From NCBI GenBank assembly GCA_041645145.1, contig JBAZQO010000001.1, forward strand, positions 2,327 through 66,326: DNA of 64,000 bases. The letters are read 5' to 3'. This document shows positions 1 to 49,218 of this stretch, one piece after another (positions within the stretch are counted from its first letter, which is position 1; each line of letters opens with the position of its first letter). The DNA is from Candidatus Omnitrophota bacterium. GTDB lineage: Bacteria; Omnitrophota; Gorgyraeia; Gygaellales; Profunditerraquicolaceae. The position numbers and the translations under genes are program-made. Below the pieces are notes generated by a model. That model did no database searches. It saw only the letters and a program-made list of their open reading frames with translations, and was not told the origin of the DNA.

Positions 1-1078
1 AAATGCACCTTTATACCTGACCTCTTTGTATATTCGATCATCTTTTTAGCATTAGCCAGGTTCATATCCTTTTTGCAGAGTTTTAAAACCTCGTCATTCG
101 CTGATTCAATCCCATATTTAACCGCGTATAAACCGGCACCGGCCATGGAGCGCAATAATTCTTCATCCATAAGGTCAACCCTTGCCATCGCTGCCCAGGG
201 AACTTTTATCTTTCTCTTCTTTATTTCTTCGCAAATGCCTAAAACATGGGTTTTGTCAATATTAAATGTATCGTCATCAAAATATACGGCTTTAAAATTG
301 AATTTCTCAATGAGCCAAGCCATCTCTTCAACGACATTTGCCGGATTTCTTTTCCTGTATTTATGCTCCCCATATATTACCTGCGGCCAAAGACAAAATG
401 TGCATTGGAAGGGACAACCGCGGCTTGACCACATTTGAACATTAGGGACAGGCAAGCCGGAAAAACCGTCATTATATCTGTAAATATCCGGAGCCTCCCT
501 TTGCGGATAAGGTAGGTCATCCAGGTTGCCTATTGCCGGCCTTGGTTTATTAACCACGATATTTTTATTATTTCTGTAGGCCAGGCCTAAAACGGATTTT
601 AGGTCTCTGGAGTTCTCCAACTCCTCTACTAAGCTTAATAAAGTATATTCGTACTCCCCCATCAAAATGTACTCTATATAATCATATTTACTCAAAATAT
701 CTTTTGCGTAGGTCGTGGCATGCGGGCCGCATAGAACTATTTGGGAATTTGGCCTTTTCTGCCTTATTCTATAAGCAAGCCTCATATCGTTGTAAAAAGA
801 AGGGGTTGAGATTTCTATAACTATGAGACCGGGCTTAGCCGCGTCAATTTCATCCATAACTCTTTGTTCATCCAGACCCCTGGCTATGGCATCAATTAAT
901 TTTACATCTTTATTCTTACTTTTTAAAAGAGAGGCGGCGTAGGCGAGAAAAAAGGGGAAGGGAATGTATTTAATATAATTGTTTTCTTCGGCTTCAGATG
1001 TAAAAGGCCAGCGCGAACCGGCTCTTACTCCCCAGCGATTATTTTTGCGCCAGGGAAGATTTAACAGTATTATGCGCA
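1..1078 (-). CDS. B12-binding (class B) radical SAM protein, partial (C-terminus beyond window start)
   Basis: Translating the minus strand from ATG near 1078 gives MRIILLNLPWRKNNRWGVRAGSRW..., typical of an N-terminal cobalamin-binding domain. Further on is SSRGCPFQCTFC, a CxxxCxxC radical SAM cluster motif. The frame stays open to position 1. The plus-strand track ORFs 73-438 and 246-428 are shadow ORFs inside this gene. Confidence 0.6.
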
Positions 1079-1516
1079 TTATTTCTTAAGATCCAGGTGC
1101 CTTTCAATTTGCTCAAAGAAAACCCTGATCTGTTGAATATTCTGATTCATATCTCTCGAATCACAATTCATCTGATCAAAATTATCTTTTATGGCTCCGA
1201 GCTTCTGAGCTATGGACTGAAGATTTTGAATAAGAGCTTCATCCTGGGCCTCCCCTGATTCTTTAGCCTGCCTGAATGAATTCTGGATATCCGCTTTTAT
1301 ATCAAATGTCATCTGCCCGATATTAGCAAACATTTTTATTAAAGCTGCCAAGAGCAAGCTGCCCATTAAAATCAAAAAACCATAAATAAATGCATTAATA
1401 TCCTTGAATTTGAATATCATCCATAAACTTCCGGCAGCAACACCGCAAATTGCGATGAAATAAGAAAAAAACAGCAAGATTATCGTAATCGGCATCTTGT
1501 TGGCAATCTTTATCAT
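1079..1516 (-). CDS. hypothetical small membrane protein with C-terminal coiled coil
   Basis: 145 aa. Two hydrophobic helices (ITIILLFFSYFIAICGVAAGSLW; FIYGFLILMGSLLLAALI) are followed by a charged, Q-rich helical tail. It is tightly packed between rSAM and GT2 genes on the same strand. Confidence 0.35.
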   Translation of the reverse strand: MIKIANKMPITIILLFFSYFIAICGVAAGSLWMIFKFKDINAFIYGFLILMGSLLLAALIKMFANIGQMTFDIKADIQNSFRQAKESGEAQDEALIQNLQSIAQKLGAIKDNFDQMNCDSRDMNQNIQQIRVFFEQIERHLDLKK

Positions 1517-1526
1517 CTAGTCCTCC

Positions 1527-2840
1527 TTAAGTTACAGTCATTGCCTGATCGGTTTCCCTGGCTGAGTTTTCGATTAATTTGCTTATACCGGAGAAGCGGC
1601 TTGCCAGGCTTTCTATACAAGATTTAAAATTGAGCAATAAAACCTCCAAGAACCCGCTATTGAGATTAACCTGCTGTTTTTTGATTAGCCCGCTCCAATC
1701 CTGGTGCAGTTGGGAGAGATTAAAGAATCTGTCCAATAGCCGGTCATCCCGTATTTTATAAACGGAGAAAAGTAAATGCCTGTGCAACGTTTTATTAAAC
1801 TCCCTATCACTGAATTTCATCCTCATAAAAATAGATAGGATCAGCCCCAAAGCCAAAAAATTCTGCGGAAAGGTATCTTCCTTTTGAATCAGGCTGGAAA
1901 GGTTTCTTTTTGAGCAATCAAAATGATAAAAAAAGGTTAAGTCCAGCAAAGAAAGCCAAAACGAGACCTTGGAATGCATAGCTATATTAAACTGACCCTG
2001 GCTACCGGGAAAATTAAAATAATCAAAATCCCTTAAAGAATGATGCAGGGCTATCAAAAAATCCAAATAAATTAATTTATATCTTTCATTATTCAGGTCT
2101 TCTTCTAAAAAACGGTTAGCCAATCCAATATTATCCTTGATCTTGAAAGCAAATCTTTCCGGATTTTTATAAAACCCTTCTTCCACATAAAAAGCAAAAT
2201 GCCATCTCCAGAAATTATTCAACAGTGAGAATAAATCATCTTCCCTTAAATGCCCTACGGCTGCTTGCGGCTCATAAACTAAATTATATCCGGTTTTCCT
2301 AAGACGCCTGGAAATATCCACATCTTCAAAGTTATTTCTATAGTTATCGTCGTAAAATCCTGCTGAGATCAGCGCCGCTTTGCGGAATAAAGTATTCGAA
2401 CCGAACAAAAAAGGAGGGTTGGTTTTCCGGCGCTCTCCCCAATGTTGCTGCATATGGACAGAGCGCCAAATGTCAAAGATACTAGAGGCCCCGGTTTCCA
2501 CAACTCTTCCCCCTGCTCCCGCCACATTTGACAGATTAATTCTTCCAACCAAATACTTAAGCCAATCTTTATCCGGCTTGCAATCGCTGTCTAAGGAAGC
2601 GATAAATTCGGCATCGGTATTTTTAATAGCGGTATTTCTTGCCGCTGCTAACCCCATGTTTTTAGCATGCTTAATGATCTTTACCGGATATTTCCCGGCA
2701 ATTGCAGCAGTCATATCGGTTGAGCCGTCATCAATAACCAGTATCTCATCCGCGGGCATACTCTGGTGCAACGCCCCCTCCAAACAAGCCCCCAGAGTCT
2801 TTTCTGAATTGAAGCAAGGAATACAGAGGGAGATTTTCAT
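1527..2840 (-). CDS. glycosyltransferase family 2 with long C-terminal extension
   Basis: N-terminus MKISLCIPCFNSEKTLGACLEGALHQS...ILVIDDGSTDMT is a GT2 (GT-A fold) signature including the DDG motif. Its ATG overlaps the stop of the upstream rSAM gene (2837-2840). Confidence 0.7.
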   Translation of the reverse strand: MKISLCIPCFNSEKTLGACLEGALHQSMPADEILVIDDGSTDMTAAIAGKYPVKIIKHAKNMGLAAARNTAIKNTDAEFIASLDSDCKPDKDWLKYLVGRINLSNVAGAGGRVVETGASSIFDIWRSVHMQQHWGERRKTNPPFLFGSNTLFRKAALISAGFYDDNYRNNFEDVDISRRLRKTGYNLVYEPQAAVGHLREDDLFSLLNNFWRWHFAFYVEEGFYKNPERFAFKIKDNIGLANRFLEEDLNNERYKLIYLDFLIALHHSLRDFDYFNFPGSQGQFNIAMHSKVSFWLSLLDLTFFYHFDCSKRNLSSLIQKEDTFPQNFLALGLILSIFMRMKFSDREFNKTLHRHLLFSVYKIRDDRLLDRFFNLSQLHQDWSGLIKKQQVNLNSGFLEVLLLNFKSCIESLASRFSGISKLIENSARETDQAMTVT

Positions 2841-4069
2841 AGCGAATGGATCTCTTCCCTTAATTTTCTTTTTAGCCGGCTGATCTCCGAAAGGATGATC
2901 TCTTTGTCTTCCCCGCCGCTTTCCCTTATGCGCCGGAATTTGTTAAAAATACCGGGTAGCCTCCTTTTGAGGAGGTTCGTTACCGAACCCTTGTAAGAAG
3001 AATAGAACCTGTACCTTAATTTCATTTTTATTACCTGGCTCTTTAAAAACTGCAAGGCCTTATTAGTCAGCTTTCGGTAACTGGCGATCCTTTTTACCTT
3101 TTTAGCCTTATCCAATATGTACGCTTTTGAGAATCGGCTGCCGAAAACTTCATCATAACAGCTCATCAGGCACCCGCTGCATCCGTTATTGATAATAGAA
3201 TTGATCAACTTCCTTCTTTTTTCAGACAACCATAATTCATACAGGCTTTCTTCCCTTATATTTCCAATCAGCTTATTATGCGAAGCTTCGATCCAACAAG
3301 GAAATATATCTCCGTTTGAATTAATGGGGCATGAATACCGAAGCGCGCCGCAATTATCCGGATGGAATTTCTTACCGGTTAAATATGCGGGTATTTTAAA
3401 TAAATAGTTTGCTGGATTAGTAGAAATTTTGCGTTCTTGAGAAATATCGATAAATCTGTGGATTATGTCCTCTATCTTCGGAATCTCCCGCTTATCTATT
3501 AAGAATTCACCCGCGCGTGCAGAATCCTTTAAAAAGATTGCATTAAAAGGCTGTAATCTTACGGTGGTAGCTCCGTACTCTCCAGCTATCTCTAAAACGT
3601 AAAGCAAGTCTTCATAATTATACCTTGATACAGTTGAAGCAACAGTAGTCTCTATTTTATATTTCCTGAGGTTGGCCAGGGCAGAGGCCGCTTTATCAAA
3701 ACTGCCGGGGCCCCTTAAGTAATCGTGCGTCCCCTTGGTTCCTTCTATAGAAATATTCACCACATTGGCCCCGGACGCGCTAAGCCTGGAGGCAACCTGC
3801 TCATCGATTAAACACCCGTTCGAAGTAACGCATGCGTTTAAATTATTCTTCTTTGCAAAGAAAATAAGTTCAAAAATATCCTCTCTTAATAGCGGCTCTC
3901 CTCCGCTAAAAACTACAGTCTGCGCTCCTAATCTAGAGGAGTCATTAATGACTTTTTTCCATTGATCAGTAGATAATTCCTCAATTTTTCCGCAAGGAAT
4001 ATCGCACATCCTGCATCGCAAATTACATCTATTGGTGATAGAAAATATGACTTCCTTTAGGTTAAGCAT
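2837..4069 (-). CDS. radical SAM / SPASM-domain protein (paralog 1)
   Basis: CNLRCRMC (CxxxCxxC) near the N-terminus; GGEPLLREDIFELI SAM-binding glycine-rich motif. The C-terminal Cys-rich region (CGALRYSCPINSNGDIFPC...GCSGCLMSC) is consistent with a SPASM or twitch auxiliary Fe-S domain. Confidence 0.75.
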   Translation of the reverse strand: MLNLKEVIFSITNRCNLRCRMCDIPCGKIEELSTDQWKKVINDSSRLGAQTVVFSGGEPLLREDIFELIFFAKKNNLNACVTSNGCLIDEQVASRLSASGANVVNISIEGTKGTHDYLRGPGSFDKAASALANLRKYKIETTVASTVSRYNYEDLLYVLEIAGEYGATTVRLQPFNAIFLKDSARAGEFLIDKREIPKIEDIIHRFIDISQERKISTNPANYLFKIPAYLTGKKFHPDNCGALRYSCPINSNGDIFPCWIEASHNKLIGNIREESLYELWLSEKRRKLINSIINNGCSGCLMSCYDEVFGSRFSKAYILDKAKKVKRIASYRKLTNKALQFLKSQVIKMKLRYRFYSSYKGSVTNLLKRRLPGIFNKFRRIRESGGEDKEIILSEISRLKRKLREEIHSL

Positions 4070-5205
4070 TCTTTCAGCAATTCTTCGTAATCTGTTAATT
4101 TGAATAATGCGGTAGATAATGATTCCTTTTTGCTTTTTCCATCAATATTATCTTTTTTCAGATCATAAATAAACGTATCAATAATGTTTGTCAATGAATC
4201 TGCCTTGGGATTGGCCCAGCAAGTTTGCAGGCAGGGTTTTTGACAATTCTTCATTGTTCTTCTGGCCTGATCAGCCTCCCTGGTTTTTAAACATTCCCCT
4301 AAACTCAAACCTTGGATATTTCCAAAGGCCGAGCCACAACTACGAACATTGCCGTCAGGGCCAACATTTACAAAAACAAACGGATTACATTTCCACTCTC
4401 TTTTGGTCAGTTCGCCCTTAAAATGCTTAACCCACATATACGGATCGTGAAGAAAAGCTACCAAACCATGATGTTTTTTATAATTAACTATTTTGTCAAT
4501 TTGCTGCTTTAATAACTCAATATCATTATCTTTAAGCCAAAAACGGGCTTTGGGCGAGGTATTCTGCATATCATCCTGATTAACAATAACCGGATGATAA
4601 ACTAAACACTCTGCGCCGGCTTCTTTAACAAGAAGTATGATATCAAAAAGTTCACCGACATTCTCCCTCATGATTGTAGCCCAAACTGATATTTGGGGGC
4701 CGGTCCCCAACTTACTCTTACTTTCGGCTAAATTATTAATAGCGGCTATGGCCTTATTAAAAGCCCCTTTTTGTCTTATGGCATCATGGGTCGCTTCTTC
4801 AGCTCCATCAAGTGAGATGGCGATATTCTTTAAACCGGATGATATAATCCTATCGGCTAAATCTTTAGTGATTAAAGCCCCGTTAGAAACAGCTTCTATT
4901 TTTAATCCTTTAGCGAATCCATATTCTACGATCTCAAATATATCGTTTCTTAAAAAAGCTTCTCCTCCGGTTATAACAACGGTCAAATCCCATCCCCAGG
5001 CAGCAATTTCATCAAATAGATTTTTCACTGCATCCTTATGCAATTCATAACCCTGCAAAATGTTGACTACCCCGCACATTTGGCAACGATAAGTACATTT
5101 ATGGCTAAGGCTTAAATAAATCCAAAGAGGCTTTGCCAAAGGCCTTTCCAATAACTCCGAGAAATAATACGCTAAGTCCTGCTCGAATCTTTTAATATAA
5201 CTCAT
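4057..5205 (-). CDS. radical SAM / SPASM-domain protein (paralog 2)
   Basis: CTYRCQMC; GGEAFLRNDIFEIV. C-terminal CNPFVFVNVGPDGNVRSCG...CQKPCLQTC. Overlaps its neighbour gene by 13 nt. Confidence 0.75.
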   Translation of the reverse strand: MSYIKRFEQDLAYYFSELLERPLAKPLWIYLSLSHKCTYRCQMCGVVNILQGYELHKDAVKNLFDEIAAWGWDLTVVITGGEAFLRNDIFEIVEYGFAKGLKIEAVSNGALITKDLADRIISSGLKNIAISLDGAEEATHDAIRQKGAFNKAIAAINNLAESKSKLGTGPQISVWATIMRENVGELFDIILLVKEAGAECLVYHPVIVNQDDMQNTSPKARFWLKDNDIELLKQQIDKIVNYKKHHGLVAFLHDPYMWVKHFKGELTKREWKCNPFVFVNVGPDGNVRSCGSAFGNIQGLSLGECLKTREADQARRTMKNCQKPCLQTCWANPKADSLTNIIDTFIYDLKKDNIDGKSKKESLSTALFKLTDYEELLKECLT

Positions 5206-5222
5206 AAGATAACTTTTTAAAA

Positions 5223-6512
5223 TTATGCCGCCAGTTTATAGTTTTTTAATACTTCTTTTTTAAGTATATTCAATTTATAAACCTCTAATCTTTTCTGATT
5301 AAAATTACCCAAGAAATTGGGCTTTACGCGCTTTAACAACTCATTGATACAATAATCTATCCTGGATATTATTCGTTCACGGGCATTAGCATTATCCAAG
5401 CATCCTTCTATTCCGGTAAGAAAATGTTTCACCTGCCCTGAAATATCCATGGGAAAATATACACAATCTTGAAGGCAATGAGCTTTGCATTTATTCACAG
5501 TATCTCTAATCTTTTGTGCTTGCAGCGAAAACCAAATCTGTCTTAAATTTTCTTTTTTAAAATCGCCATAGAGCCCCTTACAACTCCATAATTTACCATC
5601 GCACGTTATAACTATCCGCTTAATCCCCTCATAACATTTAAAACGCCTCCCAGGCTTTTTGCCCCTGAAATAACCAGGGATGGACTTCAATATGGCAGGG
5701 TCTGTGTATATGAGAATGTCCTTGGTTTCTTCTTTAATGTTGACTAGCTTACATATATTTTCCTCTAAAAGTGGCATCTCTTCCACCGATGGCCATAATG
5801 AATTTTTCTTACGTTCATACATGCTAACATTGCTCATCAAAACAGGCTGAAACACAACGGTATTGCATTTTTTGCTTTTGGCAAATTCAACGATCTTCAG
5901 CATATCGTTAATATTTTTATTCATGATGGTAAAATTTATGCCGATGGACGGACTGGTTACCTTCATTTTTTCTTTGTAATAATTCAATTTATCGATTGCA
6001 TCAACGGACTTAGCGAAAGAGCCTTCACCCCTTATCGCGTCATTTACTCCGGAAATACCGTCTAATGAAATAGTAACGTGGTTTAACCCCGAACCGATTA
6101 AACTTTGCGCCGCTTCATCATTGCATAATGCTCCGTTTGTAATAATATCCACCCAGGGAATACCGCTCTCCCTGGAAAATCTTATAAGCTCCGTAAGATC
6201 TCCGCGCAGCAGCGGCTCGCCTCCAGAGAAAATAAGATGTTTCACGCCTAAATCTTTTATTTGTAATATAATTTTCTTTATCTCGTCAGTATTCAACTCA
6301 TCTTCCTGCCTACCCGGAGATTTAGGTATATCGCACATAACACAGCGTAAACAACATCTATTGGTTAACGAGAAATAAACATGTTCAGGTGGCACCAGAG
6401 GATAAGAAACTATCCGGCTGGCATAGAATCCTATCATATCCTCGACTTTTATCAGTTCTCTTTCTAAGTACTTATCCATTACTGCCCTTGCCGGTAGATA
6501 TCCCAAATACAT
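5223..6512 (-). CDS. radical SAM / SPASM-domain protein (paralog 3)
   Basis: CCLRCVMC; GGEPLLRGDLTELI. C-terminal CYEGIKRIVITCDGKLWSC...CKAHCLQDC. The true start is probably an internal Met (M12 or M26), because the first 41 nt overlap the upstream gene. Confidence 0.75.
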   Translation of the reverse strand: MYLGYLPARAVMDKYLERELIKVEDMIGFYASRIVSYPLVPPEHVYFSLTNRCCLRCVMCDIPKSPGRQEDELNTDEIKKIILQIKDLGVKHLIFSGGEPLLRGDLTELIRFSRESGIPWVDIITNGALCNDEAAQSLIGSGLNHVTISLDGISGVNDAIRGEGSFAKSVDAIDKLNYYKEKMKVTSPSIGINFTIMNKNINDMLKIVEFAKSKKCNTVVFQPVLMSNVSMYERKKNSLWPSVEEMPLLEENICKLVNIKEETKDILIYTDPAILKSIPGYFRGKKPGRRFKCYEGIKRIVITCDGKLWSCKGLYGDFKKENLRQIWFSLQAQKIRDTVNKCKAHCLQDCVYFPMDISGQVKHFLTGIEGCLDNANARERIISRIDYCINELLKRVKPNFLGNFNQKRLEVYKLNILKKEVLKNYKLAA

Positions 6513-7527
6513 TCCTTAAGCTGGAAGATGATTCCCTGGAGTAACAGGATTGTAGACATAACTTTTCGCATTTTTTTGAATGCCTCCTCAATTCATGGGC
6601 CTCTTTTGATCTCCAGGCCCCTTTTAACGACATCATGTTCAAATTTCCGCATATCCCGTGGCAGGTATAAACAAGCGGTTCGTTCTTAGAAAAACATATG
6701 AATACAGTCTTAAGCCCTCCGAAACAAACCCAATCCGGTTTCTTAAGTGTGCCCTGATAATATTTAATTAATAATTCCGGGCGTGGTTCTTTTAACACAA
6801 CAATATGTTTCCATGCGGTTTTTTCTATTTTTTCAATTTGATCTCTTAATAACGGTATCTTCTCTGCGGCCACCCAGTTTTGCGGAATCTTTCTTTCCAC
6901 GAAATTGGCATTATCGCTGATCAGCGGCTGAAAGTTAATCACATCGACGTTTAGGTCATCGGCTAATTGCGCGATATCATGAAGCTGGGAAACATTTTCA
7001 TCCATAACCGTGACAGCGATACCCAATGAGAAATTCCTGCCTGCGGCCTTCTTCTTGCCAAGCAATTTAATGCCTTCAACGGTTTTAGCGAAAGTATGCT
7101 TTCCTCTGTAATAATCATTCGTATTTTCCAGGCCATCGAGCGAGAAATGGATATGGTCTAAGTTTGATCCAGCTATCCGCTCTGACATATCAGCGTCTAT
7201 AAGCACGCCGTTAGTAGTAATAATATTTCTCAATCCCTTGGCATGAGAATAATCGCATATACTAAACAGGTCTTTCCTTAAAAAAGGCTCCCCCCCTGTT
7301 AAAAGCAGCTCTTTTACCCCATAAGAAGCGGTTTCATCAACTACCCTGTATATCTGTTCGGTAGACAATTCTTCATCCGGCGGCAACAAATCAACTATAC
7401 TGCACATGCGGCACCTTAAGTTACACCTGTAACTAAGGGAGATTTGTACCACCTCCGGATGGATTAAAGGATAATTCATCTTCCGGGATAACCAATAAAA
7501 CAGGTTATTCATCATTTCTCTCCGCAA
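6472..7527 (-). CDS. radical SAM / SPASM-domain protein (paralog 4)
   Basis: CNLRCRMC; GGEPFLRKDLFSIC. C-terminal CFGGLKTVFICF...CHGICG...CEKLCLQSC. The N-terminus (FYWLSRKMNYPLIHPEVVQISLSYRC) closely parallels paralog 5. Confidence 0.75.
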   Translation of the reverse strand: MRREMMNNLFYWLSRKMNYPLIHPEVVQISLSYRCNLRCRMCSIVDLLPPDEELSTEQIYRVVDETASYGVKELLLTGGEPFLRKDLFSICDYSHAKGLRNIITTNGVLIDADMSERIAGSNLDHIHFSLDGLENTNDYYRGKHTFAKTVEGIKLLGKKKAAGRNFSLGIAVTVMDENVSQLHDIAQLADDLNVDVINFQPLISDNANFVERKIPQNWVAAEKIPLLRDQIEKIEKTAWKHIVVLKEPRPELLIKYYQGTLKKPDWVCFGGLKTVFICFSKNEPLVYTCHGICGNLNMMSLKGAWRSKEAHELRRHSKKCEKLCLQSCYSRESSSSLRNVFGISTGKGSNG

Positions 7528-7540
7528 AAACTACCCCTAA

Positions 7541-9517: not shown

Positions 9518-9547
9518 TATTTCACATTAGCTTATAGGAAAAGAATA

Positions 9548-11970: not shown

Positions 11971-11991
11971 AATCCAGCGGTAATGTTATTT

Positions 11992-13914: not shown

Positions 13915-16629
13915 TTATTTATCTTGTATAGTTAGAAGACCGGAAAAATAATGATATTTGCCGGGGGAAAAATTTGTTTGCGCGGAAGAAGAGTATTGTA
14001 AAATCCTGCCGCGATGATATCTATCGGAATTTATTATTTTAAGATGCCATTGTGGATTTGATTTTTTGAGAGACAAAGAAACCCGCGGTAAATTATATAT
14101 AGGATTCTCTCTTAAGCTAATAATTCGATCGTCTTTTTTACCACTCCATAAACAATCCCAGTTATCATCAACATCATCTGCGAATTCGGGAAAGAAACCC
14201 TCTTCCTTGTCAACCAGCCATTGAGAAAATCTCTCAGAAAACATAATATTGGACTGAAGACAATCTACCTCAATTTCTTTTTCTACTTCCAGCCTGACCA
14301 TCCATTCAAATAACCCATCATCTTTAATCGCTATCTCCCATTCCTGAGACAAGGGCAGCTGGAGCCATTTGCCAACAGCTTTAATTTGCTGGCTATCTTT
14401 ATAGATAATTTTCCAAGAAGCAGAAGAAAAAGAGTCATGCCAACGCCCCTTTGAACGCATTGAGGTATAGAGGGCGATATTCTTGGTAAGCTCCTCACCG
14501 TTTTTATAAAACCTCCCGCTTCCTTTATTAAATACAAATCTGATATTTTTATCTTCGATGATATTATTAAGCTTATCAATGTCCGTTGTTTTGTTTCTAT
14601 CCAAAACAAACCGCGTCCTAAAGCATTCATATTTACCCGGGGAAAACATAACGTTTATTTCCGGCTCAACCTTTTCCAAATGTAAGAGCCTTGCTTTACT
14701 ATAATGATCGGAGTTAAAAACTTTTATAAAATTGCCTAATTTTTCGGAGAAAAACAAAGAGACCTGGGGGAGACTTCCCGTAGGATCCCTTAATCCCACT
14801 TCTCCCGTAGAAACACACCTTTGCAATAAATCTACCTCCGTATCATTAAATGTGTCGCTGAATTTCTCAGAAACAAACTTACTAAAGAAAAGCTTAAAAT
14901 CTGCGGGGAAAAAACACCTTAGGCGCTGATGTTCAATAGCGATATCCCGTTTGGCTTCAATATCAACATCCCAGGTAAAAGAAAGACCATTGCATATATT
15001 GATGCGCCATGTTTGAGAAATTCCAAGATCATCCCAGTTACCTCGGGCAATCAATATATTATCTGACTCTTTTTCTAGCGTCCAGCGAGCCAAATCTGAA
15101 GTAAACCATCTCTGCTTTGTAAAAAATGCGGAATACATATGGCCGGCCTTAGTTAAAGGGATGTTATCAAAGAATACACTTAGCCTGCCATTATCAAATA
15201 TCAATTTTAACTTTTTGTTTGAAATAATAAACTCGTTTTGTATCTTAGAGACATAATCATGAATATCGGCAATATTAACCTTTATCGCGCCTGAAAAACA
15301 GATAAACCTACTGGGCTGGTTAATTGGGTTGCTGGAGATAGGTATCGTTTTATACTGCAGTATACGTCCGGGATTCAAATAATCAGAATTTAATACGGTC
15401 CCCTGACCAAGATATCTTAAGCGGGATTGTTCAAAAAACAAAGCTGGAAGCTTACCGGAAGCAGATTCCTGCGGATATACGCCAATGCAGACACTGGGTC
15501 CATTCTTGAAAAATATGGATTTCCAGTTCTTATCCTCTTCTTTTATAACAGGAAATTCTCCTTGTTCCGAGTCAACAAACCACTGCTTATAGCCGTCAAC
15601 GAGCATAACGTTAGCGTATATCTGGTGTAATTGTATATCTGTCTCCGTTTCAATTTCTATGTCCCACTTAATCTCATAATTATCAGATACCTCTATCCTC
15701 CAAATCTGAGACAGTGCAAGATGATAAAACTTACCCGTTGCTACCAACTTACCATTTGATTCCTCAACATCCCATTCTGCCTGAGTAGAACTATACCATA
15801 CGCCGGATATTCCAAATGTCGTATAAACTCCGGGAAAAGACGTGATTAATTTACCTTCCCAATTCAACAATAGGCGGCCGTTATTGAATACAAGGCTAAG
15901 CTGTTTTCTCGCAACAATGGCTATTCCCTTCGGGCTGCCGACTGCCTGCGAATAAAAAGACGCTACCTTGGCCGTTTCTCCATCTTTAATCATCATTCCA
16001 TTTTTCAAAAATATCGTTCTTTTGCACAGTTTCTGCAGCATTGCCATATCGTGGGTAACGATGATAACTGTTTTGCCGCTTTCTCCCACTTTAAATATTT
16101 CTTTAATACATTTTTTTTGGAAATACTCATCTCCCACGGCAAGCGTATCATCTATCAGGAAAATTTCCGGCTCCATATGAATGGCTATGGCAAAAGCCAA
16201 CCGCACAAACATGCCTTGCGAATAACACTTTACCGGGGCGTCTATAAACTTGCCGATCTCGGCAAAGTCGATAATCTGCTGATACCTTTTATTAATTTCA
16301 TCGCGGCTTAAGCCAAATAATTCAGACTGTAAAAAAATATTCTCTCTTCCCGTAAGCTCCGCTTGAAAGCCCGCGCCCAATTCCAGGAGCCCCGATACGC
16401 TGCCGGAGATATTTGCCTGGCCGCGGTCAGGATTTAACATTCCGGCAATTAATTTTAAAATGGTCGACTTACCCGAACCATTCTCGCCGATAATCCCCAG
16501 CGACTCACCCCTCTCCATAGAAAAACTGATTCCCCGCAAGGCCCAGAAATTTTGCCATGAGGCCTTACCCTCAATAATAAACTTGATGCGATACATCTCC
16601 CATACATCATTAAATTTAATTATAGGCAT
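13915..16629 (-). CDS. wzt: Wzt/KpsT-type ABC transporter ATP-binding protein with ~670-aa C-terminal extension of three tandem repeat modules
   Basis: N-terminal ~235 aa: Walker A GENGSGKST, signature-like YSQGM, Walker B IFLIDD, H-loop VTHD. This is the polysaccharide-exporter ATPase family. The remaining ~670 aa form three ~220-aa repeats, each with an L.L.FNNGRL...W..L..SQ.WRI...W.V.IE...DI core and an NSD(Y/H/R)...RILQY...SPGKY(E/H)(C/Y)F tail. Confidence 0.75.
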   Translation of the reverse strand: MPIIKFNDVWEMYRIKFIIEGKASWQNFWALRGISFSMERGESLGIIGENGSGKSTILKLIAGMLNPDRGQANISGSVSGLLELGAGFQAELTGRENIFLQSELFGLSRDEINKRYQQIIDFAEIGKFIDAPVKCYSQGMFVRLAFAIAIHMEPEIFLIDDTLAVGDEYFQKKCIKEIFKVGESGKTVIIVTHDMAMLQKLCKRTIFLKNGMMIKDGETAKVASFYSQAVGSPKGIAIVARKQLSLVFNNGRLLLNWEGKLITSFPGVYTTFGISGVWYSSTQAEWDVEESNGKLVATGKFYHLALSQIWRIEVSDNYEIKWDIEIETETDIQLHQIYANVMLVDGYKQWFVDSEQGEFPVIKEEDKNWKSIFFKNGPSVCIGVYPQESASGKLPALFFEQSRLRYLGQGTVLNSDYLNPGRILQYKTIPISSNPINQPSRFICFSGAIKVNIADIHDYVSKIQNEFIISNKKLKLIFDNGRLSVFFDNIPLTKAGHMYSAFFTKQRWFTSDLARWTLEKESDNILIARGNWDDLGISQTWRINICNGLSFTWDVDIEAKRDIAIEHQRLRCFFPADFKLFFSKFVSEKFSDTFNDTEVDLLQRCVSTGEVGLRDPTGSLPQVSLFFSEKLGNFIKVFNSDHYSKARLLHLEKVEPEINVMFSPGKYECFRTRFVLDRNKTTDIDKLNNIIEDKNIRFVFNKGSGRFYKNGEELTKNIALYTSMRSKGRWHDSFSSASWKIIYKDSQQIKAVGKWLQLPLSQEWEIAIKDDGLFEWMVRLEVEKEIEVDCLQSNIMFSERFSQWLVDKEEGFFPEFADDVDDNWDCLWSGKKDDRIISLRENPIYNLPRVSLSLKKSNPQWHLKIINSDRYHRGRILQYSSSAQTNFSPGKYHYFSGLLTIQDK

Positions 16630-16630
16630 A

Positions 16631-17422: not shown

Positions 17423-17430
17423 TCCGCTCC

Positions 17431-18741
17431 CTACAGCTTAGGGCCTTTGTTCAACCTGGATATTTCATTGTCTATAAAACTTTTGCCTGAGGAAAGCTGC
17501 TTTGCTTTTTCTAAACTATTTAATGCTAAATCATGTTTATCCATTTTTTCGTATATCTTAGATATAGTAAGACGCGCCTGCCTGTAGCGGGGATACGTAG
17601 AAACCAAACCTTCTGCTATTTCCCGCGCCCTGCTTGATTCGCCGGCGCCATTTAACGCGTAGGCATAATTATTCAATAGAGCAGGATCTGCAGGTGAGTT
17701 TTTGAGTTTTTCCCGGCAATACTTTGCTTCTTGCCGGTATTCCGCAAGCGCCTGTTCACCTCTGCCCAAGTTAACATAAATATCAGCCAAGTCATTATGT
17801 AAATTGGGATAATCATTTTTTAACACCCTCACCTTATTATACTCCAATATTGCCTGATTAAACATTTTGTCATCGCGATATACACTCCCCAGGCTATAAA
17901 TATAATCCACATTATCCGGAGCCAGGCTGACTGCCTTCTGTAAATAAGGCAGCGCTTCTCTGTAACGTTCAAGGCGCATCAATAATAATCCCAGCTCATT
18001 GTAACTGGATGCGTCGTCGCTATCCAAAGATATTGTCTTTTGCGCGTAGAAAACTGCCTTCTCAATATCTCTTTTTCTAAAATAGATGTCAGAAAGCAAT
18101 CTGTAAGCATGGCGAAACTGCGGATCTATTGTGATAGATTTATTCAGGTTTATTTCGGCATTATTGTAATCCTGCCCGGAGAGATAATAATAGCCCAAGG
18201 TATAATACGCCAAGACGTTCCCCGGGCAGAAGAGAAGAACATTCTCCAGTATAGAGATCGCCTCTTTATTCTTCTGCGCCAGGTGCAACCCTGCGCTCGT
18301 GCCTAAGGCGCCGGCAAAATAGGTATCGCAGCAGTTTTTGAATGACTCCTTTATTCTTTCATCTGACGGATTTTCCTTCTGCCCCTGGAGTAAAATCCTC
18401 AGCGCTTCCGCGTAATTTCCCTCCTCATGATAGATGCGGGCTAAAGAATCATACGCCCTGGCGCAAAGAGGATTAATACCCAGCGCTTTTTTGTATTCCC
18501 GGGCTGAAGTCTGGTAATCCTTACTTTCCAAATAAAGATCTGCCAACCCTAAATGCGCCATCCAGGCTTTGGGATTAATCCTCAGAGAGTTTCTGTAAGC
18601 GGCCTCTGCTTTTTTGTAATCCCGGTGTTCAAAATAATAATTTCCCTGGTTACAAAAGAATGCCCCCAGCTTACCCCAGGCCGAGTATGCGAAGATCGCT
18701 AACAAAACCAAAAACAGTGAATATTCAATTGCCTTCTTCAT
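17431..18741 (-). CDS. TPR-repeat protein with N-terminal membrane anchor
   Basis: N-terminal hydrophobic helix (YSLFLVLLAIFAYSAWG) is followed by more than eight ~34-aa repeats with the TPR consensus (W/Y..LG..Y....Y..A...Y..AL...P). Confidence 0.7.
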   Translation of the reverse strand: MKKAIEYSLFLVLLAIFAYSAWGKLGAFFCNQGNYYFEHRDYKKAEAAYRNSLRINPKAWMAHLGLADLYLESKDYQTSAREYKKALGINPLCARAYDSLARIYHEEGNYAEALRILLQGQKENPSDERIKESFKNCCDTYFAGALGTSAGLHLAQKNKEAISILENVLLFCPGNVLAYYTLGYYYLSGQDYNNAEINLNKSITIDPQFRHAYRLLSDIYFRKRDIEKAVFYAQKTISLDSDDASSYNELGLLLMRLERYREALPYLQKAVSLAPDNVDYIYSLGSVYRDDKMFNQAILEYNKVRVLKNDYPNLHNDLADIYVNLGRGEQALAEYRQEAKYCREKLKNSPADPALLNNYAYALNGAGESSRAREIAEGLVSTYPRYRQARLTISKIYEKMDKHDLALNSLEKAKQLSSGKSFIDNEISRLNKGPKL

Positions 18742-20039
18742 AATTTGATTTCCCCGGCTGCCCTCCTGCCGTCAAGTATCGCATCCTCCATAGACATATA
18801 CTCCCAGCTTCCGTAACGGCCGCAGGCAATTATATTGTTGCGCGACAAGAATTCTTTTATTCCCGCGGTTGCCCGGGAATAATATTGATCATAAATGGGA
18901 TACCCGTATTTTATATCGTTTGTATCCAGAACCGCTATCCTGTTTTTTTTACTTAAGATCCCGGTTCTATGGAGGTCATTTAAAACCCGTTTAACAATAT
19001 TTTCCCTGTTGATAGGTTTGCTTTTTGAATATGAAACCTCCGCATATAAAGAGCTTGTACCGCCAGGAGCATTATTATGAGAAAAATTATGGAAGAATCC
19101 AACCCTGAAAAAAATGGTTTCTTTGCGCGGGAAGTACACCCAGTGCTTATTATCCTGGCAGCTTCCTTCTACGCCAAGATTCAAATTAAAAATCGAATTC
19201 CAGCGCAGCTTTTTAAGGCTGTTAATAATTTTATCAGGCAGCGGCTTAATTATCTTTATCAATTCGGGTAGAGGTATCGTCAAAATCAGGGTATCAAATC
19301 TTTCCGAACCAGCGCCTTTGATGGTTATCTCCTTTTTCTTAAGATCAATCCCGCTAACGCAACAATTCTTGGAGACATAGCCTATTTGTTTTTCAAATGC
19401 ACCAGCAAGCTGAGCGATCCCCCCTTTTCCGGGATACCAAAAAGTGGCGTTATAACCAAAACGGTCTCTGTTTTCCGCAAAGAACCCGTTAACCATATCG
19501 GCTAGGCTGGGCTGGGGAATAAATCTTTCTGACCACGGACAAGCCATCCGGCTTAAAGGAACTGTCCAGAATTTACTGTTATAAGGGATCATAAAATGCC
19601 TGGCTATGCCTTTGCCAAAGGTAGCATTTATCCATTTTAAGAAATCTGCCTGGCTATTACCTCTCCTGGGGAACTTGCCGGCCCAGATAAATTCCCATAA
19701 GCATTCCCAGGCTATTGGCCCAGGTAAGGCGCAGAGATTAGCCTGAAAGGGGTAGCGGCTAAAAATCCCGAAATTATTGACCCAGGCGCTCCTTTCATGG
19801 CGCGCCAGATTACCTTTCAATAGCCTTCTGGCCAATTGCAGCGTATAATTGTTTCTAAAATGCAGGAGGTGGCCGTCATAATCAAAAATAAAACCCTTGA
19901 TCTGCTTGGAACGGCACAGTCCGCCGACGGTGTCTTCTCTTTCAAATACGGCAGATTCTATCCCTCTTTTCTTAAGATGCCAGGCAGCGCTTAGGCCTGC
20001 CAGGCCCGCTCCTAAAATAATAATCTTCTTCTTAGCCAT
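18738..20039 (-). CDS. FAD-dependent oxidoreductase, UDP-galactopyranose mutase (Glf)-like
   Basis: N-terminal dinucleotide-binding motif IIILGAGLAGLSAAWHL...VFERED.VGG. GHLLHF... and the C-terminal ...ACGRYGSWEYMSMEDAI resemble UGM (GxHIFH...GRLAEYKYYDMHQ). Confidence 0.5.
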   Translation of the reverse strand: MAKKKIIILGAGLAGLSAAWHLKKRGIESAVFEREDTVGGLCRSKQIKGFIFDYDGHLLHFRNNYTLQLARRLLKGNLARHERSAWVNNFGIFSRYPFQANLCALPGPIAWECLWEFIWAGKFPRRGNSQADFLKWINATFGKGIARHFMIPYNSKFWTVPLSRMACPWSERFIPQPSLADMVNGFFAENRDRFGYNATFWYPGKGGIAQLAGAFEKQIGYVSKNCCVSGIDLKKKEITIKGAGSERFDTLILTIPLPELIKIIKPLPDKIINSLKKLRWNSIFNLNLGVEGSCQDNKHWVYFPRKETIFFRVGFFHNFSHNNAPGGTSSLYAEVSYSKSKPINRENIVKRVLNDLHRTGILSKKNRIAVLDTNDIKYGYPIYDQYYSRATAGIKEFLSRNNIIACGRYGSWEYMSMEDAILDGRRAAGEIKL

Positions 20040-21015
20040 TTACTTCTATCTTAATCAGTCTCTGAAATATGCCTATGCTAAATAAAAAAACCGCCATAAT
20101 GATGCCTGCTGCGGACAGATTGGTTACCCTTGTCAAAACAACACCGCAGACGGCAAAAATAGAACATAATAAATACATAATCAAAATTGTTTTGGTCCGC
20201 GAAAGCCCCAGGGCATCGATCTTTAATGCCATATGGTCATTACTTTTCTTAAAAGGCGGCCTTCTTTTGATTACCCTGAAGATAATAAGCAATATTGTAT
20301 CCATAATAGGCAGGCCGAGAATCATTACCGGGCTAAGCAGGGCAAAAACATTGTCTCTGGATGCATAATGCGTAATTAAGGCAATGCAAGAAATGAGCAT
20401 ACCCAAGAAATGGCTGCCGGAATTACCCAGATAGGCCTTGGCGGGAGGAAGGTTAAAGATTAAAAATCCGGTGCTTGAGGCGCATAAAATAAGGCTAAGG
20501 ATCTGCACATTTAAATCTGCGCTTAATAAACCTATGAGCAGGAATGCGCTACTTACAATCAAAGCCGTACCCGCGGCTAGCCCATCCATAATATCAAGCA
20601 GATTAAAGGCATTGGTCATGCCTAAAATCCAGAAAAAAGTAATTACGGCATTGCCCCAAAAACCAAAATAAATGATGTCGGTTCTTATACCAAATGAAAC
20701 TAATAAAACTGCGCAAAATGATTGGGCCAGAAATTTCTGCGTTACCGACAATTCCCTCAAATCATCTATTACGCCTAAAAATAGCACCAAGAGAGAAACG
20801 CCTGCTACCGCTAATATCTTAGTTAAAGAAAGCCCAAATACAAAAATACCTAAACACGAAGAGAAAATAAAAGACAGCCCTATTCCCGGACCCCCTGCCA
20901 AAGGAATATTCCCTACTTTAAGTATTTTATATCTTAAAGAAACTCTTGCTATTAAGAAAGTGCAAAGCAGACAGGAGATTAGGGCCGCGGTAAAGATAAT
21001 CAGGTATTTAAGCAT
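20032..21015 (-). CDS. polyprenyl-phosphate N-acetylhexosamine-1-phosphate transferase (WecA/MraY family, GT4 superfamily) - initiating glycosyltransferase
   Basis: Polytopic membrane protein of ~10 TM helices with the conserved NAFNLLDIMDGLAAG motif (N.xN.xDG.DGL) of the MraY/WecA/WbpL family. Confidence 0.75.
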   Translation of the reverse strand: MLKYLIIFTAALISCLLCTFLIARVSLRYKILKVGNIPLAGGPGIGLSFIFSSCLGIFVFGLSLTKILAVAGVSLLVLFLGVIDDLRELSVTQKFLAQSFCAVLLVSFGIRTDIIYFGFWGNAVITFFWILGMTNAFNLLDIMDGLAAGTALIVSSAFLLIGLLSADLNVQILSLILCASSTGFLIFNLPPAKAYLGNSGSHFLGMLISCIALITHYASRDNVFALLSPVMILGLPIMDTILLIIFRVIKRRPPFKKSNDHMALKIDALGLSRTKTILIMYLLCSIFAVCGVVLTRVTNLSAAGIIMAVFLFSIGIFQRLIKIEVNG

Positions 21016-22177
21016 TTTGTCCGTTTTTCCATAAATTAAAATATATTTCTTCGGTATTTTTAAGCATGTTACTTAATAAAAACTCCTCAGAATCGATGGC
21101 TATCCTGGATAGCCTTGCGAATTCATCTCTCTGCCGAGCGTCTTCTAATAGTTCCCTCACCCGGTTCCGCATGGATTGTATGTCCCCTGCCTTAATCAAA
21201 TAACCTGTTTTCCCGTTTACAACAACCTCGCCAATACCTCCGGTATCAGTAGCCACCAGCGGAACCCCCGCGGCCATTGCTTCCAAAGCAGCTATCGGCA
21301 GGCCCTCCCATCGTGAGGTAAGCACAAAAACATCCAGGCAGGATAAAATTAAAGGTATATCATTGCGCCAACCGGTTAAGATAACCGCCTCTTCCAAATT
21401 AAGTTTCTTGATCAGGGCGCAAACCTTCCTGCGCAACGCCCCATCGCCTGCGAGGATAAATCTAGTATCCGGGAAATCTTTTTTAACAGCACTGGCTAAT
21501 TTTATAAAATCCAAAGGGGATTTCTGTTTTTTAAGACAAGCAACCGTGCCTACGACTAAACCTGCCCCGGACAACCCCAGCTTTTCCCTGGCGGCAGAAG
21601 ATACAGCGCCACCCTTGAACTCCCGGGCATTTATGGCATATTTTACCAGCGCATATTTATCCCGGCTGCCGACTGCATGAGCTAATCCTTTATTTTTATC
21701 AGATTGGGAAACCACGATTATTTTGCTGGTAAAAACCGCGCATGCCTTTTCTAAAAACAGATACAAATGATACGCGACCTTATGCTGATAATCATGAAAA
21801 CTCCAACCGTGGACAGTATGGATAATAATCTTGATACCGGCCGCCTTGGCAGCCCACCTGCCCAAAATACCGGCTTTTGAGCTATGTGTATGTATAATAT
21901 CTATATTGTTATTTTTTATATAAAAATAAAGGGAAAATAAAGCCAGGGTGTCTTTAACCGGATGGATCGGGCGCTCAAGAAATCTGCAGCAGGTTAACTT
22001 TAGATTAGGAATCTTTGCCGCTGCGTCAAGCAGTAAGCCATCTTTTGCGGTAACAAGATGGGGGTTGAATCTTTCTTTGTTTAACCCTTGAATAAGGCTT
22101 AAAAGCTGCTTTTGGGCCCCGCCTAATTCCAGCTTGGTAATTACATAAAGGATATTGACTTTCCGCTCAAAGCCCAT
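21008..22177 (-). CDS. glycosyltransferase family 4 (GT-B, group 1)
   Basis: C-terminal EGLPIAALEAMAAGVPLVATDTGGIGEVVVNGKTGYL is the canonical GT4 E-x7-E region. Confidence 0.75.
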   Translation of the reverse strand: MGFERKVNILYVITKLELGGAQKQLLSLIQGLNKERFNPHLVTAKDGLLLDAAAKIPNLKLTCCRFLERPIHPVKDTLALFSLYFYIKNNNIDIIHTHSSKAGILGRWAAKAAGIKIIIHTVHGWSFHDYQHKVAYHLYLFLEKACAVFTSKIIVVSQSDKNKGLAHAVGSRDKYALVKYAINAREFKGGAVSSAAREKLGLSGAGLVVGTVACLKKQKSPLDFIKLASAVKKDFPDTRFILAGDGALRRKVCALIKKLNLEEAVILTGWRNDIPLILSCLDVFVLTSRWEGLPIAALEAMAAGVPLVATDTGGIGEVVVNGKTGYLIKAGDIQSMRNRVRELLEDARQRDEFARLSRIAIDSEEFLLSNMLKNTEEIYFNLWKNGQNA

Positions 22178-32231: not shown

Positions 32232-32314
32232 CTTAATTCTCCTTTAAATGAGCACTAAACTTACGGGGTACGAAGTCACGAAGTGAGGCGTAAGTTTATG
32301 TGCGGGAACATACT

Positions 32315-34725: not shown

Positions 34726-34775
34726 TAGAAACAGGTTACCAGAGGCAACCGTGAGGTATCTCTGATGTATTGTTT

Positions 34776-36068: not shown

Positions 36069-36069
36069 T

Positions 36070-49150: not shown

Positions 49151-49218
49151 AAAGGGACGCTTAATTGGAGACCTTCTTATTGGCTGATAAACCTTTGGGA
49201 AGGTTAGCGTCCCTTTTA
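49151..49218 (-). terminator. long-range stem (12 bp) enclosing an inner hairpin, immediately 3' of the giant ORF stop
   Basis: aaaagggacgct ...45 nt... agcgtccctttt. The inner part has ccttc..gaagg pairing. On the minus strand it is followed by UUAUUUG. Confidence 0.45.

Follow-up and report, generated by a model that had tools for sequence, protein, structure and literature searches.

The genome of an Omnitrophota bacterium, assembled from a metagenome, contains a glycan export locus that is rich in radical S-adenosylmethionine (rSAM) enzymes and points to an undescribed chemical tailoring of a cell-surface polysaccharide. Judged from sequence, and with a probability of about two-thirds, a lipid-linked glycan that contains galactofuranose is tailored by the soluble rSAM enzymes and only then exported by the ABC transporter Wzm/Wzt. 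The diversity of surface polysaccharides normally arises from nucleotide-sugar enzymes together with glycosyltransferases, and no published description of an rSAM-rich glycan export locus was found.

The analysed window is a contiguous stretch of 64,000 nucleotides, of which positions 1-22177 form a single operon with every gene on the minus strand. Its genes are, as the initial annotation stated, co-oriented and tightly packed: neighbours lie no more than 30 nt apart or overlap by 1-41 nt. The operon encodes a GT4 glycosyltransferase, a WecA-type initiating transferase, a UDP-galactopyranose mutase, Wzm, Wzt, two GT2 domains and nine rSAM domains. Five of the rSAM domains belong to stand-alone twitch/SPASM-like proteins, one is fused to a methyltransferase, one is fused to a GT2 domain and two are B12-binding, one of which crosses the window edge.

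1..1079, minus strand: B12-binding (class B) radical SAM enzyme, N-terminal 359 aa, continuing past the window start (CPFQCTFC; PF02310 E 2.5e-10, PF04055 E 1.5e-14)
1079..1516, minus strand: 145-aa protein with two predicted transmembrane helices and a polar tail that may form a coiled coil (hydropathy)
1527..2840, minus strand: GT2 glycosyltransferase, 437 aa (PF00535 E 1.9e-32), with an uncharacterised C-terminal half of ~215 aa
2837..4069, minus strand: rS1, rSAM with an abridged SPASM/twitch domain, 410 aa (Pfam)
4057..5205, minus strand: rS2, rSAM with a C-terminal Cys cluster, 382 aa (Pfam)
5223..6512, minus strand: rS3, rSAM-SPASM-like, 429 aa (Pfam)
6472..7527, minus strand: rS4, rSAM-SPASM-like, 351 aa (Pfam)
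7541..9517, minus strand: fusion of rSAM-SPASM-like and class I SAM methyltransferase domains, 658 aa (Pfam)
9548..10912, minus strand: B12-binding (class B) radical SAM enzyme, 454 aa (PF02310 E 1.2e-10, PF04055 E 3.1e-13)
10909..11970, minus strand: rS6, rSAM with a C-terminal Cys cluster, 353 aa (Pfam)
11992..13914, minus strand: fusion of GT2 and rSAM-twitch/SPASM-like domains, 640 aa, the signature gene of the locus (Pfam)
13915..16629, minus strand: Wzt, 904 aa, ABC ATPase (residues 1-235) and three tandem galactose-mutarotase-like domains of ~220 aa
16631..17422, minus strand: Wzm, ABC-2 permease, 263 aa (PF01061)
17431..18741, minus strand: TPR protein anchored in the membrane at its N-terminus (Pfam, hydropathy)
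18738..20039, minus strand: UDP-galactopyranose mutase (Glf), eukaryote-type (4dsg E 1.5e-43; 3uka E 2.9e-42)
20032..21015, minus strand: polyprenyl-phosphate HexNAc-1-phosphate transferase (WecA/MraY family), polytopic (PF00953 E 7e-31)
21008..22177, minus strand: GT4 (GT-B) glycosyltransferase, conserved in position and marking the upstream end of the locus (PF00534 E 6.6e-39)

A Pfam search of the 64-kb window identified no rSAM domain in any of the ~40 other genes, and the clustering of these enzymes is therefore not a matter of chance.

The glycan genes listed in the initial annotation (GT2 and GT4 glycosyltransferases, a WecA-type transferase, a Glf-like flavoenzyme and Wzm/Wzt) were recovered by Pfam and PDB matches. 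The exporter pair is recognised by PF01061 and PF00005; the ATPase domain of Wzt is closest to the O-antigen Wzt of Aquifex in a PDB sequence search (E 6e-64), and its best NCBIfam matches, which lie below the equivalog cut-offs, are the TagH and galactan Wzt models. Glf aligns over its full length with solved mutases (4dsg over residues 4-415; NAD_binding_8 E 1.1e-15). A PF00953 initiating transferase, Wzm with Wzt, and cytoplasmic glycosyltransferases (GT4 and two GT2) together have the composition of a Wzm/Wzt locus, and Pfam detected no Wzx or Wzy-type family in any gene of the 64-kb window. Such pathways that include Glf are known from the Klebsiella O1/O2 D-galactan I cluster (wzm-wzt-wbbM-glf-wbbNO) and from the Wzm/Wzt system of mycobacterial galactan. 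The Omnitrophota locus shares with them WecA-type initiation on polyprenyl phosphate, extension by GT-A and GT-B enzymes, the mutase, and export by Wzm and Wzt without Wzx/Wzy. By contrast, it has nine embedded rSAM domains, including one joined to a GT2, a Wzt enlarged to 904 aa by three galactose-mutarotase-like modules, and no conventional NDP-sugar tailoring genes: the dehydratases, aminotransferases and epimerases usual for O-antigen diversification were not found in the locus by Pfam. No component for acceptor ligation or outer-membrane export (WaaL, KpsD/E-like, LCP) was found in the 64-kb window, which counts against the glycan-export reading, although such genes may lie in another part of the genome.

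The C-terminal extension of Wzt consists of three modules (residues 242-471, 472-693 and 694-904), each of ~220 aa with a galactose-mutarotase-like supersandwich fold. No PDB chain matches it in sequence, the known Wzt carbohydrate-binding domains among them, and it resembles the solved C-terminal domains in neither sequence nor fold. The carbohydrate-binding domains of Wzt from E. coli O9a, Raoultella terrigena and Aquifex aeolicus read a chain-terminating cap. Like them, the extension is carried on the ATPase and plausibly binds the exported glycan; however, it differs in fold, occurs in 1-8 tandem copies, and has rSAM and GT-C enzymes as further fusion partners. The three modules would bind the finished glycan and couple its export through Wzm, as is suggested by their fold, their fusions and the analogy with carbohydrate-binding domains of Wzt.

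The motif CxxxCxxC is present in 9/9 rSAM domains, which bears out the total of nine given in the initial annotation when the B12-binding enzyme crossing the window start is included. The same annotation listed six stand-alone SPASM-type paralogues, so that its own list summed to ten; the paralogues are there, but they number five. It also ascribed a GGEP-type motif to all the enzymes, whereas GGE(P/A) is limited to the seven SPASM-type domains (five with GGEP and two with GGEA) and is absent from both B12 enzymes. The Cys-rich C-terminal domains that it described are present in abridged form, with 5-6 conserved Cys as opposed to the 7-8 of canonical SPASM. The rSAM-SPASM-methyltransferase protein, the GT2-rSAM-SPASM protein and the two B12-binding enzymes were all found by Pfam as described. 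In relatives, the two halves of the methyltransferase fusion are separate genes (a 415-aa rSAM and a 237-aa methyltransferase in locus L021).

All the rSAM enzymes score below the cut-offs of every curated family among the NCBIfam models, and the reaction types proposed below are therefore guesses. A structure-similarity search identified BlsE, a sugar decarboxylase, as the nearest solved structure to the rSAM domain, and BlsE is also the nearest PDB sequence to rS2 (E 5e-12), the paralogue conserved in the largest number of loci (21/31). The scores against the BlsE family model TIGR04466 are 55-67 bits relative to a cut-off of 400, and the likeness to BlsE-type twitch enzymes is structural only. 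The two class B enzymes (9548-10912 and 1-1079) combine an N-terminal B12-binding domain with a CxxxCxxC rSAM core; because neither reaches the cut-off of a characterised subfamily, their activity as methyltransferases is a prediction.

Other close structural neighbours of the rSAM domain are SkfB, SuiB, CteB and PqqE, which could indicate that the SPASM-like enzymes mature a RiPP or a later-glycosylated surface protein, with the glycosyltransferases and exporter serving that product, as in glycocins or the MftC and MftF pair of mycofactocin. The locus resembles RiPP and mycofactocin clusters in pairing rSAM-SPASM-type enzymes with a GT2; MftF is among the best NCBIfam matches of the GT2 domains, 5/31 loci encode PMT_2-type GT-C enzymes, and the small membrane protein is conserved in the 3' module. 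However, a listing of small ORFs in 1-22177 contains no precursor peptide gene adjoining the rSAM genes, and the intergenic gaps of at most 30 nt leave no space for a hidden one. The locus has no PF05402 match that would indicate an RRE/PqqD domain, and there is no N-terminal room for one in the stand-alone enzymes because CxxxCxxC begins at residue 15-53. The best RiPP maturase scores, as well as that of MftF, are far below the cut-offs (StsB 119 bits with a cut-off of 625, MftC 117 with 265, PqqE 99 with 381). A leader peptidase and a peptide-type ABC exporter are both absent, the Cys set is abridged, and the exporter is of the Wzm/Wzt glycan type with sugar-binding modules. The peptide explanation is very improbable.

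Anaerobic sulfatase-maturing enzymes were also considered and rejected: the 64-kb window encodes no sulfatase, the SPASM domains lack the full set of 7-8 Cys that binds two auxiliary clusters, and no NCBIfam model of these enzymes comes near its cut-off. The initial annotation largely confined SPASM enzymes to the maturation of peptides or sulfatases, but their range is wider, as BtrN, BlsE, DesII, AhbD/NirJ and MoaA illustrate. Its assignment of the enzymes to a glycan pathway instead of a peptide or sulfatase system is supported by synteny, fusions, the BlsE-like structure and the absence of precursor-peptide and sulfatase genes.

Independent gene fusions support a connection of the rSAM enzymes to glycosyltransferases, the Wzt ATPase and the sugar-binding domain of Wzt. 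In 77 sequences of the GT2-rSAM fusion, the DxD, ED, CxxxCxxC and GGE motifs and five C-terminal Cys are invariant; its AF2 model has a pLDDT of 88.7. According to a fold search, its GT2 domain resembles GT-A enzymes with polymer- or lipid-linked acceptors (TarP/TarS, WrtF, PcManGT and GlfT2). TarS, TarP and RmlT (Foldseek E about 1e-14) decorate the lipid-linked wall-teichoic-acid polymer in the cytoplasm before its export by the ABC transporter TarGH, but they act on a different polymer and have no rSAM partner or fusion. Elsewhere, single proteins combine GT2+GT2+GT4-type+rSAM (L072), B12-rSAM+GT2+rSAM-SPASM (L016), the Wzt ATPase with five repeats and rSAM-SPASM (P0337), B12-rSAM with rSAM-SPASM and two repeats (P0363), and PMT_2 (GT-C) with four repeats (P0384). 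In a second, independent GT2-rSAM fusion, a homologue of the 1527..2840 GT2 is joined to rSAM-SPASM (L083).

These partners, which handle sugar (GT2, GT4 and galactose-mutarotase-like domains) and are not lipid-binding, make it very improbable that the rSAM enzymes have a lipid substrate, either a membrane lipid or the polyprenyl carrier, and yield a radical-tailored glycolipid for export, in the manner of hopanoid tailoring by HpnH, HpnJ, HpnP and HpnR or of tetraether lipid synthases. Lipid rSAM families score far below their cut-offs and under many other families, and hydropathy indicates neither transmembrane segments in the rSAM and GT2 proteins nor membrane-interacting segments in the rSAM enzymes.

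Another explanation takes soluble nucleotide-sugar precursors as the substrates of the rSAM enzymes, so that unusual monosaccharides are made first and polymerised conventionally, as DesII and BlsE might suggest. Most characterised sugar-acting rSAM enzymes take small molecules, BlsE is the closest structure, and with no conventional NDP-sugar tailoring genes, diversity needs another source. The sugar-acting enzymes of antibiotic pathways (BlsE, BtrN, DesII, AprD4 and the B12-dependent GenK/GenD1) catalyse single small-molecule steps in secondary-metabolite clusters; by contrast, up to nine paralogues, and elsewhere at least 16, are located here in a primary cell-envelope export operon. The fusions to glycosyltransferases, Wzt and multi-copy glycan-binding modules fit polymer or lipid-linked substrates better, nucleotidyltransferase genes are absent from the locus, and glycosyltransferases are few (four in the window) relative to the nine rSAM domains. 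Action on nucleotide sugars is unlikely.

We infer both the reactions and their target, which could be the polymer, a lipid-linked oligosaccharide or a nucleotide sugar. In the preferred reading of tailoring before export, the WecA-type enzyme, whose family assignment is firm, would prime polyprenyl phosphate with HexNAc-1-phosphate as the presumed substrate; the mutase would provide UDP-Galf, and the chain would be extended by the GT4, both GT2 domains and additional GT2s past the window edge. The seven rSAM domains of BlsE/BtrN-like type, with their auxiliary Fe-S clusters, may abstract hydrogens from sugar C-H bonds, resulting in oxidation, epimerisation, deoxygenation, decarboxylation, or C-C or C-O bond formation, while the two B12-dependent enzymes and one conventional methyltransferase may add methyl groups. 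The target would be the glycan itself or its lipid-linked intermediates, reached by soluble, cytoplasmic rSAM enzymes. In the Wzm/Wzt route the whole polymer is assembled in the cytoplasm, which is the only compartment where oxygen-sensitive enzymes dependent on SAM and reductant can reach it.

The GT2-rSAM fusion is full-length in 49 species-level genomes, and Wzm and Wzt are nearly always upstream of it (37/40 and 34/40 loci, respectively). Farther upstream, loci with enough sequence usually contain Glf (24/31), WecA (22/31) and GT4 (21/31), counts that are lower bounds, with soft absences, since the 10-kb flank limit cuts many loci. The TPR protein is accessory and restricted to closer relatives (6/31 loci). 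Downstream of the fusion, the set of rSAM genes varies, with 2-8 or more members within 10 kb; locus L081 has at least 16 in 21 kb. A conserved 3' module has the order rS2-rS1-GT2-small transmembrane protein-B12 rSAM: homologues of the 1079..1516 protein occupy the equivalent position elsewhere, and orthologues of the 1..1079 enzyme, of ~452 aa, follow it in at least 12 loci. Glycosyltransferase genes are present in every homologous locus examined and Wzm/Wzt in most; however, locus L080 has the 3' module without Wzm/Wzt within 7 kb upstream, which counts against the glycan-export reading. Few multi-gene features in this analysis are as conserved across Omnitrophota as this locus. The rSAM set varies by species like a serotype cassette and therefore probably diversifies the surface structure.

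A broader proposal, which we advance tentatively and at somewhat less than even odds, is that Omnitrophota, and possibly some DPANN archaea through gene transfer, produce polysaccharides tailored by radical chemistry. In combinatorial cassettes, 3 to at least 16 rSAM enzymes would functionalise C-H bonds of an assembled lipid-linked galactofuranose-containing glycan, with C-methylation, oxidation or epimerisation, deoxygenation, and C-C or ether cross-links as candidate reactions, and a new multi-copy, galactose-mutarotase-like reader domain of Wzt would gate export. The compact operon (about 23 kb or more) and the solubility of its parts make the locus accessible to direct tests.

If the proposal is true, radical-enzyme arrays would represent a new layer of glycan chemistry, the equivalent for glycans of what maturation is for RiPPs. 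Numerous uncharacterised rSAM families would gain a defined substrate class, and a new glycan-binding module controlling ABC export would be defined. Omnitrophota are ultra-small bacteria, mostly uncultured and probably dependent on hosts, and the cell surface is likely to be central to their lifestyle.

Every gene in the window from 1 to 27.5 kb is located on the minus strand, and from 22177 down to 1 the genes either overlap by 1–41 nt or are separated by gaps of at most 30 nt.

Genes of the locus in order of transcription, with domain assignment
21008–22177, minus strand: GT4 glycosyltransferase (Pfam)
20032–21015, minus strand: WecA/MraY-type transferase (PF00953)
18738–20039, minus strand: FAD enzyme, UDP-galactopyranose mutase, Glf (PDB 4dsg, E 1.5e-43)
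17431–18741, minus strand: TPR protein (Pfam)
16631–17422, minus strand: Wzm, ABC-2 permease (Pfam)
13915–16629, minus strand: Wzt, ABC ATPase, 904 aa (Pfam)
11992–13914, minus strand: GT2-rSAM-SPASM fusion (Pfam)
10909–11970, minus strand: radical-SAM (rSAM) enzyme (Pfam)
9548–10912, minus strand: B12-binding rSAM (Pfam)
7541–9517, minus strand: rSAM-SPASM-methyltransferase (Pfam)
6472–7527, minus strand: rSAM (Pfam)
5223–6512, minus strand: rSAM (Pfam)
4057–5205, minus strand: rSAM, rS2 (Pfam)
2837–4069, minus strand: rSAM, rS1 (Pfam)
1527–2840, minus strand: GT2 glycosyltransferase (Pfam)
1079–1516, minus strand: two-TM protein, 145 aa
1–1079, minus strand: second B12-binding rSAM, starting at 1079 and continuing past the window edge (Pfam)

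The nine rSAM domains are encoded within 13.9 kb, and none is present in the approximately 40 remaining genes of the window. The initial annotation counted six stand-alone SPASM-type enzymes where there are five, and the remainder of its inventory is accurate; it ascribed GGEP(L/F)L to all rSAM enzymes, but GGE(P/A) occurs in the seven SPASM-type domains alone. The possibility that the ninth domain is part of the long Wzt was ruled out because Wzt lacks CxxxCxxC; the ninth domain belongs to the truncated gene 1–1079. The GC content of the locus is 0.40, compared with 0.44 in the remaining window, and that of the rSAM part (1–13914) is 0.39 versus 0.44 in 22178–64000, which fits the low values that typify surface-glycan islands of a variable or horizontally exchanged kind. 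The locus is flanked by housekeeping genes (HAD, PAC2, M20, V/A-ATPase operon, pyrimidine synthesis, GlmS, and GyrA), of which HAD and PAC2 are retained as flanks in close relatives only. The PAC2 (proteasome-assembly-chaperone-like) gene (22829–23800, minus strand) is directly upstream of the locus, and the V/A-type ATPase operon is farther along the window (31773–38947, minus strand). The gene for the 1251-aa GyrA (59660–63415, minus strand) is split by an intein that contains a LAGLIDADG homing-endonuclease domain (PF14890, PF14528). No Pfam family matches a 2545-aa ORF (49216–56853, minus strand) at E 1e-5, and its product may be one of the very long orphan proteins reported in Omnitrophota (bioRxiv 10.64898/2026.06.07.730766).

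The seven SPASM-type domains share 25–35% pairwise identity over more than 310 residues, and identity between the two B12 enzymes is 25%. Orthologues from other genomes are 40–88% identical to the rSAM enzymes of the window. Therefore, the enzymes are old paralogues with separate roles. All orthogroups retain CxxxCxxC, the GGE motif, and five to six C-terminal cysteines, arranged as two upstream cysteines and a CxxxCxxxC-type triad. These cysteines would be sufficient for at least one auxiliary cluster and are fewer than the seven to eight of canonical SPASM domains. When every protein of the cluster was scanned with NCBIfam, none of the rSAM enzymes came near a curated cut-off, so that no functional name can be transferred to them.

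Among proteins of solved structure, rS1 is closest in sequence to SkfB and BlsE, and rS2 to BlsE. Readings of the enzymes as sulfatase-maturing (anSME) or RiPP-maturing were rejected, since the partners and motifs that these require are missing. The gaps in the locus are too short to hold a precursor peptide gene, its proteins contain no PqqD/RRE domain detectable with Pfam, the rSAM enzymes have no N-terminal extension, no leader peptidase or peptide exporter was found, and there is no sulfatase across the 64 kb. The glycan context originally proposed for the locus is supported, and a peptide or protein is a most improbable substrate.

The GT2 half of the fusion is similar to GT-A enzymes whose acceptors are polymers or lipid-linked (TarS/TarP, RmlT, WrtF, PcManGT, and GlfT2), and the DxD, ED, CxxxCxxC, and GGE motifs are invariant across 77 fusion sequences. 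Further gene fusions occur in homologous loci of other genomes. A 1532-aa protein combines GT2, GT2, GT4-type, and rSAM domains (L072), and one of 1170 aa joins B12-rSAM, GT2, and rSAM-SPASM (L016). Locus L083 encodes a 963-aa GT2+rSAM+rSAM-SPASM protein together with an independent second GT2-rSAM-SPASM fusion of 880 aa. B12-rSAM+rSAM proteins are present in L034 and L063, and tandem rSAMs in several loci, whereas the methyltransferase that is fused to an rSAM in the window is a stand-alone gene in relatives. The probable substrate of the rSAM enzymes is the glycan or lipid-linked intermediates of it, with an estimated probability of about 65%. Nucleotide sugars are unlikely to be their substrates. 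Modification of the lipid moiety is very unlikely.

The fusion is identical (100%) to a protein from a Candidatus Omnitrophota MAG. Its homologues number 282 at E ≤ 1e-10, the best 120 of which are all at least 49% identical to it; among these 120 matches listed, those with a named taxon all bear the label Omnitrophota or Omnitrophica. When one genome was scanned for each GTDB species, the fusion was identified in approximately 70 genomes, nearly all Omnitrophota. Open reading frames of the loci were classified by BLAST against the window proteins. Upstream of the full-length fusion (49 loci), Wzm is present in 37 of 40 and Wzt in 34 of 40; Glf, WecA, and GT4 occur in 24, 22, and 21 of 31 loci with a full-length fusion. 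The 10 kb downstream contain two to eight rSAM genes, including zero to three of B12 types. The locus is composed of a conserved 5′ module (GT4-WecA-Glf-(TPR)-Wzm-Wzt-fusion), a variable middle in which the families of rSAM and B12-rSAM differ and which includes methyltransferase and, in some loci, PMT_2 GT-C enzymes, and a recurrent 3′ module (rS2-rS1-GT2-small TM protein-452-aa B12 rSAM-GT2). On one scaffold of 235 kb, at least 16 rSAM genes are spread across 21 kb surrounding the 3′ module. Gene order is identical in a 95%-identical relative (L082), in which two short ORFs (5192–6413) take the place of an intact TPR gene between Glf and Wzm. This split, together with the presence of TPR in just 6 of 31 loci, suggests that the TPR protein is dispensable.

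Some MAGs with the locus bear labels such as 'Planctomycetales' or 'Paceibacterota'; the PAC2/HAD flanks of one locus (L006) match those of the window, which suggests a mislabelled taxon. The fusion, rS2/rS1-like, and B12 rSAM genes are also found on Nanoarchaeota/Woesearchaeota-labelled contigs (L055, 1–21854; L046; L050), and in L055 the rSAM genes adjoin an archaeal Hel308-type helicase (PF21280), a MurA-like gene, and a GT2-MurB fusion. These loci could be the product of gene exchange between Omnitrophota and DPANN archaea, or of mis-binning. An Ignavibacteriales-labelled contig (L080, 4597–13037) contains the 3′ module (rS2-rS1-GT2-small protein-B12 rSAM), whose neighbours are an FGE-sulfatase-family gene (PF03781), a transposase, and genes for a CBM30-like protein and a GDSL hydrolase. 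No Wzm/Wzt was found within 7 kb upstream, and the 3′ module may move independently. In L083 (708–6220 and 12942–14027), two Peptidase_U32 genes and a B12-rSAM precede Wzt, and the rSAM array encloses a gene for a GDSL/SGNH hydrolase. Fe-S hydroxylases that work independently of O2, such as UbiU/UbiV, belong to the Peptidase_U32 family. GDSL genes are also present in L055 and L080.

The ATPase domain of Wzt is most similar to that of the O-antigen Wzt of Aquifex aeolicus (E 6e-64). Residues 242–904 form three tandem repeats of approximately 220 aa each, which are invisible to self-BLAST of the tail and were recovered by motif search and MAFFT. The tail is not the known Wzt carbohydrate-binding domain. 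It has no Pfam or PDB sequence match, including by profile search, and its AlphaFold model (53 homologues, pLDDT 85.8) consists of three all-beta domains. A profile of the three repeats retrieved 580 cluster representatives from 1.84 billion proteins, with one to eight copies per protein. Among seven representatives scanned with Pfam, three are Wzt-type ATPases carrying just the repeats, and a fourth has no Pfam match. The others combine Wzt, five repeats, and rSAM-SPASM (P0337); B12-rSAM, rSAM-SPASM, and two repeats (P0363); and a PMT_2 GT-C enzyme with four repeats (P0384). One sugar-binding-fold domain is therefore joined to an exporter as well as to rSAM enzymes and a periplasmic glycosyltransferase. 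The shared domain is the strongest evidence that the three act on one glycan substrate.

No description of such a system was found in the literature searched on rSAM enzymes in connection with Omnitrophota, O-antigen/LPS, galactofuranose, Wzt, B12, GT-rSAM fusion, or BlsE. The sole precedent found is one uncharacterised rSAM gene in a LOS-related plasmid block of Brachyspira (PMC4267127). Every component belongs to a known superfamily and the export logic is classical. Three elements appear to be undescribed: rSAM arrays embedded in an operon for Wzm/Wzt export, the conservation of GT2-rSAM fusions, and a multi-copy galactose-mutarotase-like module on Wzt.

All rSAM and GT2 proteins lack transmembrane segments, and the cytoplasm would be the place where oxygen-sensitive, SAM- and reductant-dependent enzymes reach the glycan. 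In the proposed pathway, WecA would prime the carrier, and GT4 and GT2 enzymes would add Galf and further sugars to the growing chain. Tailoring may follow, in which the BlsE/BtrN-like rSAMs, B12-rSAMs, and methyltransferase modify it at the level of C-H bonds, before the triple reader domain of Wzt recognizes the glycan for export by Wzm/Wzt. Structural diversity of the glycan would originate from the variable rSAM cassette, which may stand in for the nucleotide-sugar tailoring genes that the locus lacks.
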